Shown piece after piece: positions 8,073 through 14,983 of a stretch of DNA of 14,983 nt. The position numbers and the translations under genes are program-made. Numbering within the stretch: position 1 is the first letter of the stretch; each line of letters starts with the position of its first letter. The notes beneath the pieces were generated by a model, which had not been told where the DNA came from, did no database searches, and saw only the letters and a program-made list of their open reading frames with translations. Source of the stretch: a virus. Lineage: Duplodnaviria > Heunggongvirae > Uroviricota > Caudoviricetes. The stretch is from IMG/VR virus record IMGVR_UViG_2529292981_000041. One strand, given 5' to 3'.

Positions 8073-8483
8073 TCAGAACGGAATATCATCACCGTAAGGG
8101 TCATCGCCTTCCGCTGGTGGCTGATTACCCTGTGTGCCTGTGGTCTTGCGTCTGTTCCCGCCAGGACGTGCCGCACGGGCACTGATTACGCTGTCTGCAA
8201 TAACCTGATACCCCCGCCGCGTTTCCCCGTTCTGTCCGGTTCACTGGCTTACCTGCATCGTGCCGGATACGCTGGCAACATCGCCTTTTTGATGTTTAGC
8301 CAGGAAATCGGCCTGTTTGCCAAATGCGATAACCGATAACCATAACGTCGCCTGTCCGTCATGTGCCTGGCTGCATGGCAGCGATACCGCCATACGCGCC
8401 AGCGTCATCGGTGTTCCCTTGCTGGTCTGTTTTACCTGCGGGTCGTCCACCAGCCGCCCGTAAGCCGCTATCTGTGCTGTCAT
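8073..8483 (-). pseudogene. ssb: SSB-like gene interrupted by an in-frame TGA (8241-8243) at the position of the conserved Trp
   Basis: N-terminal ORF 8241-8483 (MTAQIAAYGRLVDDPQVKQ...TLWLSVIAFGK...) has OB-fold SSB character. The same frame continues for 55 codons after the TGA and ends with the SSB tail signature ...PPAEGDDPYGDDIPF*. The TGA aligns with E. coli SSB Trp88 (RTRKWTDQ against VSQ*TGQ). Confidence 0.6.
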
Positions 8484-8731: not shown

Positions 8732-8764
8732 TTGCCACCTCAATTTATATATATATAGAAACAT

Positions 8765-9082
8765 GTGCGGGTTATGCGGGTTATTGGGTTATCTTAGCGT
8801 GCTAACCATTTTTTATCCTTTTATATCAGCATGTTGCAAAACGCCCTGTTTATTATTTGCTCACCACATAACCCGCAAAACGCTCAAAATAACCCGCAAA
8901 CGGGGTTTTTTCTGCGGGTTACGCATGACTGTCCGGTGTTACTTCAGTTATTCGCCTGCGGGTTATAATCGTGCTTTTGCGGGTTATAAATGCCCTTTTG
9001 CGGGTTACGTGCGGGTTATTGATTTCCTTTATATTCATGCACTTAATACACTTATACACAGGATAACCCGCATAACCCGCAA
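8765..9082. repeat. Iteron-type replication origin: at least 11 copies of the 9-mer GCGGGTTAT / ATAACCCGC, AT-rich tracts and a DnaA-box match
   Basis: Copies at 8767, 8776, (8785 degenerate), 8868, 8889, 8914, 8958, 8979, 9000, 9011, 9063 and 9072, in both orientations; three are spaced exactly 21 bp. (TA)6 at 8746-8757; TTATACACA at 9052-9060. Sits immediately downstream of the replication gene. Confidence 0.7.
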
Positions 9083-9103: not shown

Positions 9104-11236
9104 TTAATCTTCATCATCAGGCTGGAACATCAGCACGTAAAAAACATGCTGCTTACCCCCAATCTTGCCCAGCGCCTTTTTTTTGTATCGGCGATCGCTT
9201 CCCTTCTCCAGCATTCCGGCAGCATCCAGGGCACGCGCAAAATGCGCCGGATTAAATCCCTTCGCTATCTCACTCTCAAACACGTGCGGGAACGTGTAAT
9301 AGCGCATCTCGTCATCTTCGTTGCGAATGCTCCCTTTTCTGTATCCGGCAAGCTCTTTAATCGGTAAATCACGCTCATCTGTATTGGGGTACGGAAGGTA
9401 GCGGCTAAACCCAAACGACGACAAAAACGCCTCAGCCTGTTCAACCATCTGTTTAAATTCCCTGTTACCTGTGCCGAACTCCTTCACCCAGGCATTAAAG
9501 TTATGCTGTATCGCGTCGCGGCATTCCTGCACGACCCAGCCAGTTACATGACCGGAAAGCACAAGCGCGGCCTCCAGTATGGCGAAACGTTCACCCACGC
9601 GGTGGACCTGCTCGCCGTAACTCTCCGGTATCAGGTTGCGCCACCGTTCGCGGCATTCCCTTACCGTGTCCTTTGCCTCCTGCTGGTGGCCTGCCAGCCA
9701 TTTAACCCACTCACGACCCGCCGCCCCGTGATTTGCTGTCCAGGCATCCTTTAACGCGTCAGCATGTTCCTTACCGTTGCTGTATTCGTGAAATTTCGTG
9801 GCTTTTTCCATCGGAACGTTAAGCAGTCGGACAAGCTGCCCCGCCTTAACTTTTATCCCCTCACTTTTGAGGAATGTCTCAACGTCCATTTCTCCGGTGC
9901 TGATTGCCACCGTTCGCCAGTGTTTGATCTCCCTGTTGCCGCCATCCTTCGCCCCCTGCAATTTCCCTGAACCGTTAAACAGCGTATAAGCAGACGTTGA
10001 CACTTCCCGCGCATTTCCGGCCTGGCCTATCTCATCCAGTGGTAAAAGCCCGTCATTATGGGCCTCGGCCTCATTGGCAATACCTAACGCCGTGCCGTAC
10101 CAGGTCAGCCGCTGCGCGTCCGGCTCTCCCCATAAACTTGATGCGATGTTCTGCGTGGTGGTCTTACCTGCCGATGACTGTTCGAAAAGATGCACCCCGA
10201 AGCCGTCAGCACCCACAAGGCCAATTAAAGGCGCTGCCAGTGACGTTGCCACACCCAGTATCATTGAGGCATTACCGCCAGCCAGCCGCGCCACGCTGTC
10301 GCGCCAGCCATCCGCCGTGCCCGCCACGGAATAACCGTTAATCGCGGCGCTTTTTCCGGTAAACAGGATCGGTTTTTCAGATTCACCAATGATCGAACCG
10401 TCCGGCATGATGTACGCGCCAAAATGCCAGCCCGTTGTTGTGCTTAACTGCCATTCCTCATGGCTTCCGCTTAACTGCATCCAGTCCGCCAGGATTGCCC
10501 TGTATTTGCCGTTGGTTGTCACGTTCAGCCCGTGATCTTTAAGTAACCGCCAGCCGTCACGGTCGCCGATACCACCACACGGGATCGCCATTGTGATGAC
10601 TTTATGGTTTGCGGTTTTTTTCCAGCGCATCACGCGGTAATGCTCTTTACCGATCGTCCCCGTTCCCAGTAGTTCAAGCGGAGAACATAACCACGTCTCA
10701 GGCCGGATAATTTCGCCTGACTGCTTATCCACTTTGGGCGTTACCCAGAAAACACCATCGGCGCGACTTTCAACGCGTGGCTTTAATTCGTCATCGCTAT
10801 GGCTTCCGGTATCTTTTTTCTTTACCGGAAACTCAATAACCAGACCATCAGAAAGATTCTGCCGCTCACGGGCCAGATATTCGCGCCAGTTCTCCACCTT
10901 CTGACCGTGCATTCCTTCGGGGTAAAAATTTGCGTCCTGAATATCTGCCGCCGCCAGCTTCTGACCAATCTTTTTGGTCTCCACCAAATCCAGTTCTCCG
11001 GCCTGGTACAGCCTTACGCGTTTTTTTCCATCCGGAACAATTTTCAGCGCATCAAGTTCGGCAAGCTGATTTGGCCCAAGCCACACAGGCGGAACATTAT
11101 CGCCGGATGCGGGGCCATCCTGCTCCTGCCATTGTTTCGCGTGCGACCAGGCATCACTACCCGCGAAAATAATTACCTCTGTGTCTTTGTGTTTTATTCC
11201 GCGTGGCTGTTTTTTTACGTTCGGTGCCAGTTTCAT
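9104..11236 (-). CDS. Replication initiator, primase/helicase-like P-loop protein (DUF927-like ATPase)
   Basis: 710-aa ORF with Walker-A-like HLFEQSSAGKTTTQN, adjacent to the iteron origin, analogous to P4 alpha or PICI Pri-Rep proteins. ATGA overlap with the upstream gene. Domain assignment is from memory. Confidence 0.75.
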   Translation of the reverse strand: MKLAPNVKKQPRGIKHKDTEVIIFAGSDAWSHAKQWQEQDGPASGDNVPPVWLGPNQLAELDALKIVPDGKKRVRLYQAGELDLVETKKIGQKLAAADIQDANFYPEGMHGQKVENWREYLARERQNLSDGLVIEFPVKKKDTGSHSDDELKPRVESRADGVFWVTPKVDKQSGEIIRPETWLCSPLELLGTGTIGKEHYRVMRWKKTANHKVITMAIPCGGIGDRDGWRLLKDHGLNVTTNGKYRAILADWMQLSGSHEEWQLSTTTGWHFGAYIMPDGSIIGESEKPILFTGKSAAINGYSVAGTADGWRDSVARLAGGNASMILGVATSLAAPLIGLVGADGFGVHLFEQSSAGKTTTQNIASSLWGEPDAQRLTWYGTALGIANEAEAHNDGLLPLDEIGQAGNAREVSTSAYTLFNGSGKLQGAKDGGNREIKHWRTVAISTGEMDVETFLKSEGIKVKAGQLVRLLNVPMEKATKFHEYSNGKEHADALKDAWTANHGAAGREWVKWLAGHQQEAKDTVRECRERWRNLIPESYGEQVHRVGERFAILEAALVLSGHVTGWVVQECRDAIQHNFNAWVKEFGTGNREFKQMVEQAEAFLSSFGFSRYLPYPNTDERDLPIKELAGYRKGSIRNEDDEMRYYTFPHVFESEIAKGFNPAHFARALDAAGMLEKGSDRRYKKKALGKIGGKQHVFYVLMFQPDDED

Positions 11237-11532
11237 TTCTTACCCCTGAATACGTTAAGCATCTTTTTTATTTCCTGAATATTGGCGCGTGCTTTCTCCC
11301 TGCTGGTTGGTTTACTGCGGGGCGCTGCCTGTACCAGAGAAAAATCACGATCGAACTGATAAACAGGCATAACGCAGTCATATTCGTAGCCTTCACGGCG
11401 GTAAGTGATGCGGCGTTCTCTCACGCTGATAATCGTCACGATGCCGCCGTACTGGTCGCGGTAAATATCCCCGCGCATGAATTTAGTGCGAGTTTTGCCG
11501 CTGTCAGTTAAGCCAGGATATTTAAGTTTCAT
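11233..11532 (-). CDS. Hypothetical protein (99 aa)
   Basis: ATG at 11530-11532; stop overlaps the primase start (ATGA); MKLKYPGLTDSGKTRTKFMRGDIYRDQYGG... Confidence 0.6.
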   Translation of the reverse strand: MKLKYPGLTDSGKTRTKFMRGDIYRDQYGGIVTIISVRERRITYRREGYEYDCVMPVYQFDRDFSLVQAAPRSKPTSREKARANIQEIKKMLNVFRGKK

Positions 11533-11537
11533 TATTT

Positions 11538-11798
11538 TTATTCCCCGATAGCGTGACCTGATAAGCCGTTAATCTTCTCTGATATGCTCTCTATTTTGCT
11601 GGTTGAACTATCCAGTAATTCAGAAACGGCTAATATTAATCTTGCAGTTGATTCATCGCGTTCATTATTCACCAGCGACTGAAGCCACATATTCATTACT
11701 TCGTTTGCTGCGTTGTTTAAAGATATTGCGCTGTTGGCAAGGCTTCTTAATTCACTGGTCGCCAGTTTATTATTTTTCATAGCGTTCGGCTCTCTCAT
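11538..11798 (-). CDS. Hypothetical small helical protein, AT-rich gene (start ATG 11798 or 11780)
   Basis: ORF ...MKNNKLATSELRSLANSAISLNNAANEVMNMWLQSL...; GC content visibly lower than flanking genes. Confidence 0.45.
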   Translation of the reverse strand: MREPNAMKNNKLATSELRSLANSAISLNNAANEVMNMWLQSLVNNERDESTARLILAVSELLDSSTSKIESISEKINGLSGHAIGE

Positions 11799-11961
11799 CA
11801 ATTAACCACAGCGCAACACTTCCTGACAGTTTTGCCAGAAGGCCAGCTAATGCGGATATATCACCATCATTTAATTTATCAGGGTATACCTCAAGAAGGC
11901 GGCAAATAATTTCTGTCTGGTGCGCACGTTCAGCGGCTTCGTGTAATGTAATTTCCTTCAT
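11770..11961 (-). CDS. Hypothetical protein (63 aa)
   Basis: ATG at 11959-11961 with a strong AGAGGTG SD; TAATG stop/start junction with the upstream gene; MKEITLHEAAERAHQTEIICRLLEVYPDKL... Confidence 0.5.
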   Translation of the reverse strand: MKEITLHEAAERAHQTEIICRLLEVYPDKLNDGDISALAGLLAKLSGSVALWLIDERAERYEK

Positions 11962-12146
11962 TAATGCACCTCTTTTAATTCATACACTGCTGAAATAATG
12001 ACTTGTGATAAGCCATATTCTGATGATTCGCTTCTCACCGCAGCAATAGCCGTCTGAACATTAACAGCCTTCACATTCTGAGCGATACCAATTGTGTGGC
12101 CTAGTGGGTTAACAGCGCTGGCAAATACACGGAAGGTTTTAAGCAT
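11961..12146 (-). CDS. Hypothetical protein (61 aa from ATG at 12146)
   Basis: ATG preceded by GGGGG; MLKTFRVFASAVNPLGHTIGIAQNVKAVNVQ...; AT-rich. Confidence 0.5.
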   Translation of the reverse strand: MLKTFRVFASAVNPLGHTIGIAQNVKAVNVQTAIAAVRSESSEYGLSQVIISAVYELKEVH

Positions 12147-12411
12147 GGCACACCCCCTGACGAATACGGGCGGCAAATACAGCAACACAACCTGACGGGC
12201 AACGGCTACGCGCTTCGCGTTCCGTCCAGGCGGTTACGTGGATGATTTGAGATTCTCCGGCACTCAGTGCCAGAAAACGCCACACAAAGGCCGTTTGTGT
12301 GTGTACAAGGTGTGGTATATGATTTACAGCAACCATAACGGCTCCTAGTTTACGTTGTTGGTTAGAAGCCCTGCGAGTGGTAACGACACTTGCGGGGCTT
12401 TGTCTTTTCAT
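12139..12411 (-). CDS. Possible first ORF of the leftward early operon (90 aa); could instead be an untranslated leader
   Basis: ATG at 12409-12411 with AAGGT SD, about 23 nt downstream of the predicted transcription start. Ala/Val/Arg-rich composition is not convincing. Confidence 0.3.
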   Translation of the reverse strand: MKRQSPASVVTTRRASNQQRKLGAVMVAVNHIPHLVHTQTAFVWRFLALSAGESQIIHVTAWTEREARSRCPSGCVAVFAARIRQGVCHA

Positions 12412-12428
12412 CGATTACCTTGATAAAG

Positions 12429-12509
12429 GTGTCAGCCACTATATTAGTAACGGGTGTCAGCCACGTCAATAGTGTTTTTCCGTTTTCTTGTGTGTATACT
12501 GTCAGCCAC
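12429..12509. promoter_or_regulatory. Three direct operator-like repeats (G/C)TGTCAGCCAC at 12429-12439, 12454-12464 and 12499-12509
   Basis: The 10-mer TGTCAGCCAC is exact in all three (copies 1 and 2 share the full 11-mer GTGTCAGCCAC). Copies 1 and 2 overlap the leftward promoter (transcription start and -35); copy 3 overlaps the -10 (TATACT, 12495-12500) of the rightward RHH gene. Confidence 0.5.
12441..12469 (-). promoter_or_regulatory. Near-consensus sigma70 promoter driving the leftward early/replication operon
   Basis: Minus strand: TTGACG (plus 12464-12469), 17-nt spacer, TAATAT (plus 12441-12446). Confidence 0.5.
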
Positions 12510-12530: not shown

Positions 12531-12710
12531 ATGGCAACAAAAGCAGTTAATGCAAAATCCAAAAAGCTTGAGGCTCGAGTACCACACGCAATAGCTGATG
12601 CTGTAGAAAATTTAAAGGAAGATGGCGAAAGTACAGGGCAATTTATCGTTTCGGCACTTGAAGGCGAGATCAAACGCCGCCAGCGCCGCAAGGCCAAAGA
12701 ATCAGAATAA
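12531..12710 (+). CDS. Ribbon-helix-helix-type DNA-binding protein, candidate repressor (59 aa)
   Basis: ATG at 12531 with GAGGA SD; MATKAVNAKSKKLEARVPHAIADAVENLKEDGESTGQFIVSALEGEIKRRQRRKAKESE has a strand-helix-helix arrangement typical of Arc/CopG-like proteins. Divergent from the main operon; followed by a plus-strand terminator. Confidence 0.5.
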   Translation: MATKAVNAKSKKLEARVPHAIADAVENLKEDGESTGQFIVSALEGEIKRRQRRKAKESE

Positions 12711-12767
12711 TCACTATCAGCGCCGTGGTGTGAGGTATTACGGCGCATTGCTATGCAGGACAACACA

Positions 12768-12941
12768 ATGACCGATAAAGAATTGACCAAAACATTATCA
12801 CCGGCACGGAAAAGACGGCGCAGAAAGATAGAGCATGAATCAGAAAGATTCGCACCATGTGCTTTTGCCCTTGAGCAATTCCTTAAAGAGTACAGGGAAA
12901 AGCGCTCATTGCAGGTATGGCAACGAACTGAACCAGACTGA
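12768..12941 (+). CDS. Hypothetical small basic protein (57 aa), second gene of the rightward unit
   Basis: ATG at 12768 with AGGA 8 nt upstream; MTDKELTKTLSPARKRRRRKIEHESERF...; the terminator lies about 95 nt downstream. Confidence 0.35.
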   Translation: MTDKELTKTLSPARKRRRRKIEHESERFAPCAFALEQFLKEYREKRSLQVWQRTEPD

Positions 12942-13036
12942 TTGCATTGCCCACCAGCCTGATAGCGGCTATCATCCCCGTGCTTATGTTTGGGATCACA
13001 CACACAAACGGCGCAGCGGGTTATCTGTTCAGAAAG

Positions 13037-13064
13037 GCGGCTCCATTTCGGGGCCGCTTTTTTT
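13037..13064 (+). terminator. Rho-independent terminator of the rightward regulatory unit
   Basis: gcggctcc-atttc-ggggccgc (8-bp stem including one G-U pair) followed by seven T. Confidence 0.55.
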
Positions 13065-13210
13065 ATACCTGAAAAACCCCAATTTTGTTGTTTTTCAGTT
13101 TCACCAGGGCGAACGAATCCCCGCCCACGTTCTGGCGTATATTCAATCTTCATGGTTATAGCTCTGTGTTCAGATGATTGATGTGTGGCGGCTGCGTGCC
13201 GCCAGCGTGA

Positions 13211-13399
13211 TTAATGAACTGCCTTGCAGCTATCCTTCCAGGCCAGAACCTCGGATAAAGACCAGCCAACGGAACGACCGCCAAGTTTACGACGTGATGG
13301 GAATTGTCCGGCCTTTTCCAGGCGGTAGCGACACGTACGGCTAAGGCCGGTTAGTTTTTCGCATTCTTTTTCACGTATAAACCGATCAGTGCTTAACAC
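13211..13399 (-). CDS. alpA: AlpA-family regulator / excisionase-like protein (GTG start)
   Basis: 62 aa; CEKLTGLSRTCRYRLEKAGQFPSRRKLGGRSVGWSLSEVLAW matches the AlpA/Xis helix-turn-helix pattern (TGLSRSTIYR...FP..I.LG.RSV.W...EV..W). GTG at 13397-13399 preceded by a strong AGGGGGG SD. Confidence 0.8.
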   Translation of the reverse strand: MLSTDRFIREKECEKLTGLSRTCRYRLEKAGQFPSRRKLGGRSVGWSLSEVLAWKDSCKAVH

Positions 13400-13683
13400 T
13401 ATTGCCCCCCCTTTCGTTTCTTAAAGAGTCATCAGGTGTCTTATTGTGTCGTATTGTTCCCGCTAGAGTGATGAATGGCAAATATTGAGGATGTATGATT
13501 TACAGAAAATGAAACAGTAAGAATAAAATCTTTTAAATTCATGTTAATACAAAGGCATAAAATATTGTTTCATGCCTTTTTTCTCGCTCTTTAAAGAGTG
13601 ATTCGCTAGTGTATAAAAAACCAGTGACACATTAAAAATCAGCCACTTATAAATCTGTATGCTTTTTCGCCTCTTGTTCGTGG

Positions 13684-13723
13684 TTGTTCCACATTGTTGC
13701 TCATTGTTGCACGTTGTATCTGT
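13684..13723 (+). promoter_or_regulatory. Four tandem 10-bp TTGT-type repeats (ttgttccaca ttgttgctca ttgttgcacg ttgtatctgt) next to a 16-bp perfect palindrome
   Basis: Same repeat family as 247-276 and 7711-7740. Perfect palindrome cagtatgcgcatactg at 13733-13748; a plus-strand TTGCAC, 16 nt, TATACA promoter-like arrangement overlaps. Confidence 0.35.
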
Positions 13724-13765
13724 TCGCATATACAGTATGCGCATACTGAAAAAACACGAAAAAAA

Positions 13766-14983
13766 TTATTTTCTTCTGGCTACTGGTAGCGTGGTTACGT
13801 TTTCATGTGTTCCCGCCAGTATCCCTAACCGCTCCGTCCACATATCCAGCGCATTGCGTTTAGCATCCAGATAACGGGAATGATTATAAACTCGCTGCAT
13901 TCCTGGCATCTGGTGGCCTGTAAGCTGCTCCACGACATGCGGATCAACGCCTAAATCGTTCAGCATGGTTGTAAAGGTGCGCCGGATGTCATGCAGTGAC
14001 CAGTGAGGATGATTAAGCCTCCTGTGCGCTAATCTTCCATACTGCGATACGCTGGCCTCCTGTTTCACTTCCCCCAGCAATAAGCCCGTGTGCCTGTTCT
14101 GCTCCACCAGCTGCGTGACGAACGGCAGGATCGCTTCCGGTATGGGCCGGAATATTGCGACCTTCGTTTTGCTGTGCTCCTTCGGAACGGTCCATAGCAT
14201 TTCCGTAAAATCCCACTCCCCGATCTCCGATAACCTCAGTTCTACCGTTCTGGCTCCGAAGACAATCAGGAGGCGGATTAACGCGACGTAGTAAGGGGAG
14301 AATATTTTTTTGTCCAGTGCCTGCAATAATTCGCCAAGTTCTTTGTTACTTAAGACACGTTCGCTTATATCCGGTTTTTTCCCAACGTCCGCCACGTTCA
14401 GATCGTCCAGAACGTTGCTGATTGCATAGCGCCGCCTACGGCAGAACTTAAGCGCCTGTTTGCACGCCTGTAGCACGAATCCGGCAGTAACAGGCGTTCG
14501 CTTTGCCACCTGGTCAAAACAGGCCAGCCAGTGCCGTAGCTCGCATTTATCCAGCGGCATAGCACCAATCTGCTGTATTACGTGATTATTAAGTCGCCTT
14601 TTCAGGGCGATATAATCCACGCGGTTTTCCTTTACGTAATACTCAAGCCAGTAGGTGAGCGCATCGCCAACCGTTACCGGCTTTAACGCTTCCTGTACGG
14701 TGTAATTAAGCTCATGACGTGGATTTTTCCCCTCTGCCAGCCATGCGCGACACTGGGCGGCTTTTTCCCTGGCTGATTTCAGGCTCAGATCAGGATAACT
14801 TCCCAGCTTAATGCGTTCGGGTCGTGTCTCCCTTCCCGTTCCGGCCCTGTATGTGAAATACCAGGTCAATTTCCCTGATGTTAAATATTTCACGCTCAGG
14901 TTTCCGCCATCACTATAAAACGTGTTTTTCTCCGCTGGCTTACCATGAAGTTTCCTTAGCAAGGTATCGCTCAGTTTGTTCAT
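13766..14983 (-). CDS. int: Tyrosine integrase, P4-like, with N-terminal arm-binding domain
   Basis: 405-aa ORF, ATG at 14981-14983. Catalytic signature present: Arg in FGARTVELRL, HxxR in HDIRRTF, and Tyr region RVYNHSRY. The N-terminal ~90 aa are arm-binding-like. Confidence 0.95.
   Translation of the reverse strand: MNKLSDTLLRKLHGKPAEKNTFYSDGGNLSVKYLTSGKLTWYFTYRAGTGRETRPERIKLGSYPDLSLKSAREKAAQCRAWLAEGKNPRHELNYTVQEALKPVTVGDALTYWLEYYVKENRVDYIALKRRLNNHVIQQIGAMPLDKCELRHWLACFDQVAKRTPVTAGFVLQACKQALKFCRRRRYAISNVLDDLNVADVGKKPDISERVLSNKELGELLQALDKKIFSPYYVALIRLLIVFGARTVELRLSEIGEWDFTEMLWTVPKEHSKTKVAIFRPIPEAILPFVTQLVEQNRHTGLLLGEVKQEASVSQYGRLAHRRLNHPHWSLHDIRRTFTTMLNDLGVDPHVVEQLTGHQMPGMQRVYNHSRYLDAKRNALDMWTERLGILAGTHENVTTLPVARRK

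Follow-up and report, generated by a model that had tools for sequence, protein, structure and literature searches.

Three small genes in the coupled early operon of an Escherichia coli O157:H7 capsid-forming satellite and their possible part in phage-triggered growth arrest

The stretch of viral DNA analysed here (IMG/VR record IMGVR_UViG_2529292981_000041; 14,983 nucleotides (nt) in full length, hereafter the window) is a capsid-forming satellite of Escherichia coli O157:H7, named OI-51, CP-933C or Sp7 and belonging to the EcCIEDL933 type. We focused on three small genes, orfA, orfB and orfC, which an earlier reading of the same DNA (the original prediction) had described as a tightly coupled cluster of low guanine-plus-cytosine (GC) content, possibly carrying helper-interference, anti-defence or defence cargo. 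Although OI-51/CP-933C (prototype EcCIEDL933) is an intensively studied pathogen island, all three genes are annotated only as 'hypothetical'. Together with an icd-like gene, rgdR (a DUF4222 gene) and a primase gene, they form one translationally coupled operon of six genes in the order icd-like, orfC, orfB, orfA, rgdR, primase. The features of the operon and of the region that precedes it are as follows, with product lengths in amino acids (aa) and stem length in base pairs (bp):

12430-12509, minus strand: putative regulatory region of the early operon (promoter scan, repeats)
12365-12401, no strand assigned: hairpin in the operon's 5' leader (stem of 15 bp), followed by a T-run on the plus strand
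12139-12336, minus strand: icd-like gene, first of the operon (NCBIfam NF033153, E = 5.8e-18; RefSeq)
11961-12146, minus strand: orfC, 61 aa, mildly basic (RefSeq; PHROG 3672)
11770-11961, minus strand: orfB, 63 aa, acidic (RefSeq; PHROG 1478)
11538-11780, minus strand: orfA, 80 aa, acidic (RefSeq; PHROG 5796 and 2196)
11233-11532, minus strand: DUF4222 gene, fifth of the operon (Pfam PF13973, E = 1.6e-23)
9104-11236, minus strand: DUF927 primase/helicase-type replicase, 710 aa, last of the operon (Pfam PF06048, E = 1.4e-48; RefSeq)

Consecutive genes overlap or nearly touch throughout the operon. More specifically, orfC starts 8 nt before the icd-like stop (ATGCTTAA), orfC and orfB share 1 nt (TAATG) and orfB and orfA share 11 nt; orfA is separated from the DUF4222 gene by a 5-nt spacer, and the DUF4222 gene overlaps the primase gene by 4 nt (ATGA). 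The tight coupling claimed for the three small genes is thus borne out by overlaps of 8, 1 and 11 nt that can be read directly from the sequence. The coordinates given in the original prediction hold for orfB and orfC but require correction for orfA, which starts at 11780 (MKNNK..., 80 aa) and not at 11798 according to RefSeq and to all homologues except one of 86 aa (P0004). The icd-like product is 65 aa long by the RefSeq start, with the longest open reading frame (ORF) extending to 12411 (90 aa), and it weakly resembles the old P4 'cI ORF' over the C-terminal part of the latter.

orfA, orfB and orfC are genuine protein genes under purifying selection. The pairwise ratio of nonsynonymous to synonymous substitution rates (dN/dS) is mostly 0.10-0.37, as in the neighbouring DUF4222 gene, and rises to 0.66 in near-identical pairs with few differences; gene by gene, it is mostly 0.10-0.37 for orfC, 0.24-0.53 for orfB and 0.15-0.26 for orfA. 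Together with conserved ORF lengths, these ratios rule out the notion that the cluster is a non-coding or artefactual patch rich in A and T.

The deviation in base composition is real as well. Positions 11538-12146 contain 41.7% GC compared to 51.2% for the window and 51.4% for its island part, placing the cluster at the 3rd percentile of all 609-bp segments; the only other segments of that size with equally low GC overlap either the cluster itself or the intergenic region between the integrase gene (int) and alpA. orfA has the lowest GC content (39.1%), followed by orfC (41.9%) and orfB (42.7%). At third codon positions, the GC fraction is 0.33-0.40 in the small genes versus 0.55-0.66 in the capsid, portal, terminase and primase genes, and the deviation therefore lies in codon usage and not in amino-acid content alone. 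Because the homologous genes of other islands are likewise GC-poor (0.32-0.48), low GC is a long-standing trait of these gene families, and the patch is explained by a mosaic history combined with sustained low-GC codon usage.

Scans of the three proteins against Pfam, NCBIfam and PADLOC returned nothing significant, and sequence searches of the Protein Data Bank (PDB) with narrow as well as broadened family profiles returned nothing credible. The absence of recognisable motifs that had been claimed consequently stands for these four resources, but each protein does have a full-length match to a PHROG family (orfC to 3672, E = 9e-46; orfB to 1478, E = 8e-35; orfA to 5796/2196, E = 8e-53), all of 'unknown function'. 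The original prediction had named ordinary base composition and homology to replication accessory proteins as findings that would speak against it; the GC content is truly deviant, as described above, and no such homology was found. hhalign detected no relation of the orfA profile to the orfB profile, nor of the latter to the C-terminal extension of another protein, P0088.

All three products had also been called helical. This description fits orfB, for which the AlphaFold2 model is a two-helix hairpin (helices at residues 6-25 and 32-61, predicted local distance difference test score (pLDDT) of 75); a Foldseek search of this model against the PDB gave nothing at E ≤ 0.001 and generic helical hairpins only. 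The orfA product is probably a helical hairpin too, judging from a sequence with no proline and no glycine before residue 72, whereas the orfC model is unreliable (pLDDT of 55.6). We also considered a link between orfC and RonA, the Ronin effector of the same length (61 aa), and rejected it, since orfC has no transmembrane segment while the published RonA is membrane-spanning and linked to hsdMS.

The acidic nature of two of the proteins is relevant to a possible anti-defence role, in which these early proteins would act, for example, as DNA-mimic-like inhibitors of restriction or of other host immunity. The isoelectric point (pI) is 5.0 for orfB and 4.0-5.1 across the orfB- and orfA-family proteins, which are in addition small and fast-diversifying, with shuffled alleles, and the position of the block had led the earlier reader to expect such a role. 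The net charge is nonetheless modest, at -3 to -4 for orfA and orfB of the window (-5 to -8.5 in some relatives), and dN/dS values of 0.1-0.3 denote purifying and not arms-race selection. General Pfam and PHROG scans matched no known family of this kind, no search having been aimed at such families. Furthermore, the transposon data described below point to a contribution to host killing. We therefore consider anti-defence improbable.

Whether the block is cargo or part of the core operon can be judged from its distribution. The order icd, orfC, orfB, orfA, DUF4222 is found in 44 of the 49 IMG/VR loci that carry orfC. Classical E. coli satellites show the same order alongside different packaging modules, different replicases (DUF927, P4-type/DUF5906 and RepA/AAA_25 all occur beside the block) and different integration sites, namely the clpS/cspD region, roxA, tRNA-Gly and the inside of a lambdoid portal gene. 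Of the approximately 60 loci checked, all except two have the orfC start 8 nt ahead of the icd-like stop, and genes of the orfA family lie directly upstream of DUF4222 wherever both were identified (one locus, L032, being uninspected). The original prediction had placed the block at a position typical of satellite cargo. It is instead a syntenic part of the early operon, located between the regulatory region and the replicase and free of any PADLOC match, and the variable or defence regions known from such satellites lie elsewhere, at the flanks of the packaging operon or in the gene right after alpA. Because the same ordered families recur across islands with different modules and sites, the reading as a cargo hotspot does not fit.

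Within this order, the region is a conserved slot structure with exchangeable alleles, and recombination exchanges the small-gene alleles between islands one gene at a time. Accordingly, the three genes are close to alleles of three different island types (97% identity to the L003 type for orfC, 94% to the L011 type for orfB and 96% to the L002 type for orfA), and the synonymous divergence (dS) of one island pair disagrees from gene to gene. Slots can also be emptied or filled differently. Variant islands carry orfC with two tandem divergent orfB paralogues and no orfA, and an Escherichia albertii island has icd-like, orfC-like, DUF4222 and DUF927 genes only, that is neither orfB nor orfA. EcCICFT073 shares the frame of icd-like gene, small genes, DUF4222 and replicase, with members of the orfB and orfA families in the same relative positions; it differs in having no orfC and in having two other, unrelated small genes (PHROGs 5146/2512/24341) between its orfB-like and orfA-like genes. 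Divergent orfA members are present in L003-type and CFT073-type islands. One classical satellite with the same early block (L003; NZ_CP062871.1 4255018-4273351) splits the portal gene of a lambdoid prophage in two.

This distribution also bears on a role as replication accessory proteins, whether by loading or recruiting the replicase at the iteron origin or by regulating it there. The small genes are always co-transcribed with the replicase and immediately upstream of it, and the primase is needed to reconstitute the phenotype of the ECOR61 locus discussed below. Beside the block, the DUF927 replicase shares its first ~40 residues (MKLAPNVKKQPRGIKHKDTEVIIFAGSDAW...) nearly unchanged with the 584-aa P4-type primases of three islands (L002, L003 and L004), from which it differs otherwise; this conserved N-terminus suggests either a recombination junction or a shared interaction domain. 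However, no fewer than three unrelated types of replicase accompany the same small genes, some islands do without orfB and orfA and others without orfC, and neither Pfam, NCBIfam nor the PDB revealed homology to known loaders or initiator partners. Taken together, an accessory role in replication appears unlikely.

The three families could be traced only to Escherichia, Shigella and E. albertii, from which every named homologue comes; a few divergent orfC relatives lack a known source. An exhaustive HMMER search with the orfC profile retrieved only 13 clusters among 1.84 billion representative proteins, no orfC relatives were found in species-representative genomes, and DUF4222 as a query retrieved Shigella and E. 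albertii loci only. Deposited phage genomes gave no match to the 609-bp block (blastn) or to orfC (tblastn), the orfA and orfB proteins not having been searched. DNA resembling the DUF4222-replicase junction is present in 1539 of 5426 complete E. coli genomes (~28%). In one protein of 247 aa (P0081), the C-terminal 55 residues match orfC, which is either a real fusion or an artefact of assembly or gene calling; by eye, we take its long N-terminal region to have the look of a hexapeptide-repeat acyltransferase.

Upstream of the operon, the divergent intergenic region between the icd-like and YlcI/YnfO genes holds a sigma-70-like promoter on the minus strand (12469-12441; TTGACG, 17 nt, TAATAT; promoter scan), bracketed by three exact copies of TGTCAGCCAC at 12430, 12455 and 12500. 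These copies probably serve as operators bound by AlpA or a different regulator. In the leader, the hairpin at 12365-12401 resembles an intrinsic terminator on the plus strand, antisense to icd-like, and might be an immunity RNA element in the style of P4 and P1; an Rfam search of the whole window at E ≤ 1 gave no match, C4-type RNA families included.

A locus with the same geometry has been connected to phage-triggered cell death. By expressing phage accessory genes in wild E. coli strains, Silas et al. found that orf24 triggers the death of strain ECOR61 via a 'prophage-encoded superinfection exclusion system' (bioRxiv 10.1101/2023.04.06.535777). This trigger is vec3_03, an early gene of the virulent Autographiviridae podophage VEc3, located just upstream of ocr. 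Tn5 insertions suppressing cell death were obtained in an Icd-like gene (366 bp), in a 186-bp gene that shares 8 nt with it and in a 192-bp gene that in turn shares 1 nt with the 186-bp gene, within a unit of six genes of which the last encodes a DNA primase; removal of the Icd-like gene abolished the effect, and the primase was needed for reconstitution (10.1101/2023.04.06.535777). Because no suppressors were reported in the far larger primase gene downstream, simple polarity is unlikely and orfB represents the 3' limit of the requirement.

The window shares with ECOR61 the Icd-like gene in first position, the 186-bp and 192-bp genes that follow, the 8-nt and 1-nt overlaps and the six-gene unit ending in a replicase or primase. 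The offsets between orfB and orfC (191 nt) and between orfC and icd-like (178 nt) are the same as in QOYT01000045.1:8940-9132, 9131-9317 and 9309-9675. An IMG/VR locus used as a proxy (L060) encodes an icd-like product of 121 aa (366 bp), an orfC of 186 bp, an orfB of 192 bp, an orfA-like product of 73 aa, DUF4222 and a 583-aa primase; its orfC is 92% identical to that of the window, and its 192-bp gene is a member of the orfB family. That the suppressor genes of ECOR61 are homologues of orfC and orfB is very likely, though not proven. The guess of interference or defence made in the original prediction gains from this phage-triggered cell death and superinfection exclusion at a locus of the same geometry.

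In order and logic, the early operon is also similar to the left operon of P4, which ends in the alpha primase gene and carries before it vis (AlpA-like), an Ash/Icd-like ORF, epsilon, orf151 and orf106. Epsilon overlaps the end of the upstream ORF by 8 nt, exactly as orfC overlaps icd-like, and the three small genes thus take the place in which P4 has its gene for helper derepression. By analogy, orfC could be an antirepressor which, possibly with orfB and orfA, inactivates the repressor of a helper prophage, as P4 epsilon does with P2 C. Small acidic helical proteins would suit such protein-binding inhibitors. Nevertheless, orfA, orfB and orfC have no detectable similarity to epsilon, orf151 or orf106 (DUF5375) by BLASTP and Pfam; none of them matches PF25738 (the derepression protein family), for which P4 epsilon as a control scores 9e-51, and the P4 small genes, at 52-60% GC, are not GC-poor. 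Capsid-forming satellites are moreover described as induced by their helpers and not as inducing them. Finally, a virulent podophage is the source of the ECOR61 trigger and the insertions suppress death, which argues for a role in toxicity. An antirepressor function is accordingly doubtful, though somewhat less so than an accessory role in replication.

A further relative of this arrangement is the immI operon of P1 (c4 RNA, icd, ant). This regulated early operon couples the translation of icd, which encodes a cell-division inhibitor, to that of the gene behind it; Ant, encoded after icd, inactivates the C1 repressor. The icd-like gene of the window shares such coupling and matches the Icd-like family of NCBIfam. 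Unlike immI, the window has no C4-type RNA by Rfam and no Ant-type families in Pfam or PHROGs, P1 Ant itself being uncompared. A relation between DUF4222 and P4 orf151 was rejected, the match being weak and unconfirmed by Pfam. The old P4 'cI ORF' (L010 7888-8584) is made of an N-terminal Ash-family part and a C-terminal Icd-like part, and this composite structure probably accounts for the label 'transcriptional repressor' given to Icd-like families in PHROGs. Cell death triggered by a phage protein is likewise caused by a P4-type prophage in ECOR15, with transposon hits in the AlpA, Icd-like and primase genes (10.1101/2023.04.06.535777).

Of the roles considered, the likeliest is that of a growth-arrest or superinfection-exclusion module acting with the Icd-like protein, a reading that we favour tentatively. 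We infer the biochemical mechanism as a whole, as follows. A phage protein would turn the operon on at the sigma-70-like site (12469-12441) among the TGTCAGCCAC repeats, and the start/stop overlaps would set a fixed proportion of the small proteins to the Icd-like cell-division inhibitor. orfC and orfB would then work with Icd-like, whether as co-effectors, as sensor or as the actual effector, leading to growth arrest or killing. The satellite would thereby take over the host while it replicates, and phages other than the helper would be met by abortive infection or superinfection exclusion. For orfA, the least supported step, a role as partner or modulator of either RgdR or the replicase is probable, as suggested by its constant location beside RgdR.

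Several observations weigh against this reading. The authors of the ECOR61 study name Icd-like as the likely effector and describe the reconstituted effect as 'muted' (10.1101/2023.04.06.535777). That assignment is itself confounded because removal of icd-like also breaks the translational coupling to orfC and orfB, and the roles of Icd-like and of orfC/orfB are inseparable in the ECOR61 data. The homology to ECOR61 is based on identical lengths and overlaps, on annotation and on the proxy locus, not on an alignment. Differences are also apparent: the ECOR61 Icd-like protein has a long N-terminal extension (~121 aa for the whole protein) compared to 65 aa, or at most 90, in the window; identity between the window and L060 falls to 73% for orfB and ~30% for orfA; and the window has a DUF927 replicase where L060 has the 583-aa primase. 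In addition, the window element is a capsid-forming satellite, unlike the element of L060. No homology in sequence searches or, for orfB, in the Foldseek search backs any biochemical activity of the three proteins, and the paper on capsid-forming satellites reports no interference with their own helper phage. Lastly, none of the three genes is universally required, since the E. albertii island is without orfB and orfA and EcCICFT073 without orfC.

A bolder version of the growth-arrest reading, which we consider rather unlikely, is that the early operon common to many E. coli satellites doubles as an immune sensor. orfB and/or orfC, in place of Icd-like, would detect early proteins of virulent T7-like phages, or kill, the shuffling of alleles would diversify recognition, and in O157:H7 the coupling to RgdR would link sensing to type III secretion. 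The genes are uncharacterised and without a curated family, and a system of this kind has been reported once, in a preprint in which it was unrecognised as a satellite early operon. In the searchable literature, we found no link of the cell-death system to OI-51, RgdR or capsid-forming satellites. The analysis joins three literatures, on capsid-forming satellites, on virulence regulation by RgdR and on the screen of phage accessory genes. If the link to the ECOR61 genes is true, the orphan six-gene 'prophage' cell-death system would be the conserved early operon of E. coli satellites.

The neighbour of orfA has a published function in virulence. The DUF4222 product is 99 aa long with an RGD motif at residues 20-22, and its gene lies between Z1841 and Z1842 in OI-51; for these reasons, it fits the published description of RgdR (ECs1581), which activates LEE1 (locus of enterocyte effacement) and type III secretion and represses motility in enterohaemorrhagic E. 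coli (EHEC). By gene order, orfC probably corresponds to ECs1578/Z1840, orfB to ECs1579 and orfA to ECs1580/Z1841, with ECs1581 being the DUF4222 gene and ECs1582/Z1842 the replicase. Most conditions leave Z1840 silent; antibiotic treatment of a kind that also induces the EDL933 prophages induces it (log fold change of 5.6, based on low read counts). The native role of RgdR in the satellite life cycle is apparently unstudied.

With RgdR next in the operon and a PerC/Pch homologue downstream, the small proteins could themselves be moron-like host regulators, as RgdR and PchE are, tuning virulence or motility genes of EHEC. The effect on type III secretion was nevertheless traced by complementation to ecs1581 alone, orfA and orfB are acidic with no DNA-binding motif in Pfam, and the genes are also present in commensal-type and environmental E. 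coli, the LEE status of which was unchecked. We regard this as a very improbable role, the least credible of those weighed against the growth-arrest module.

The assignment of the window to the EcCIEDL933 type relies on its overall layout. A 1.25-kb stretch around the small genes is 100% identical to O157:H7 chromosomes (for example, SS TX 754-1 and TB21-1), and RefSeq annotation of the identical region places an element of ~15 kb inserted in tqsA. A P4-type integrase, alpA, a replicase with an adjacent origin and its own packaging genes are all present within ~15 kb, as expected for this type (RefSeq, Pfam, iterons, literature). Outside of the early operon, the following features were recorded:

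13766-14983, minus strand: integrase (RefSeq)
13211-13399, minus strand: AlpA (RefSeq)
12706-13153, minus strand: truncated pseudogene directly downstream of alpA (RefSeq)
12531-12710, plus strand: YlcI/YnfO gene, divergent (RefSeq)
8740-9082, no strand assigned: probable replication origin, with a (TA)n tract at 8740-8760 and at least 12 iterons TGCGGGTTAT in both orientations
8073-8483, minus strand: SSB (single-stranded DNA-binding protein) pseudogene, with an internal stop (RefSeq)

The putative origin lies directly downstream of the replicase gene and has 43-44% GC. Past the replicase, the minus strand carries a small ORF, the SSB pseudogene and the PerC homologue (RefSeq). The packaging genes, also on the minus strand, are arranged in the order major capsid protein, protease, portal, head closure, connector, HNH, small and large terminase (RefSeq). 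The truncated pseudogene at 12706-13153 occupies the slot after alpA that is reported to be variable among capsid-forming satellites. The intergenic region between int and alpA (13400-13765) has the lowest GC content of the window (~33%), below that of the small-gene block.

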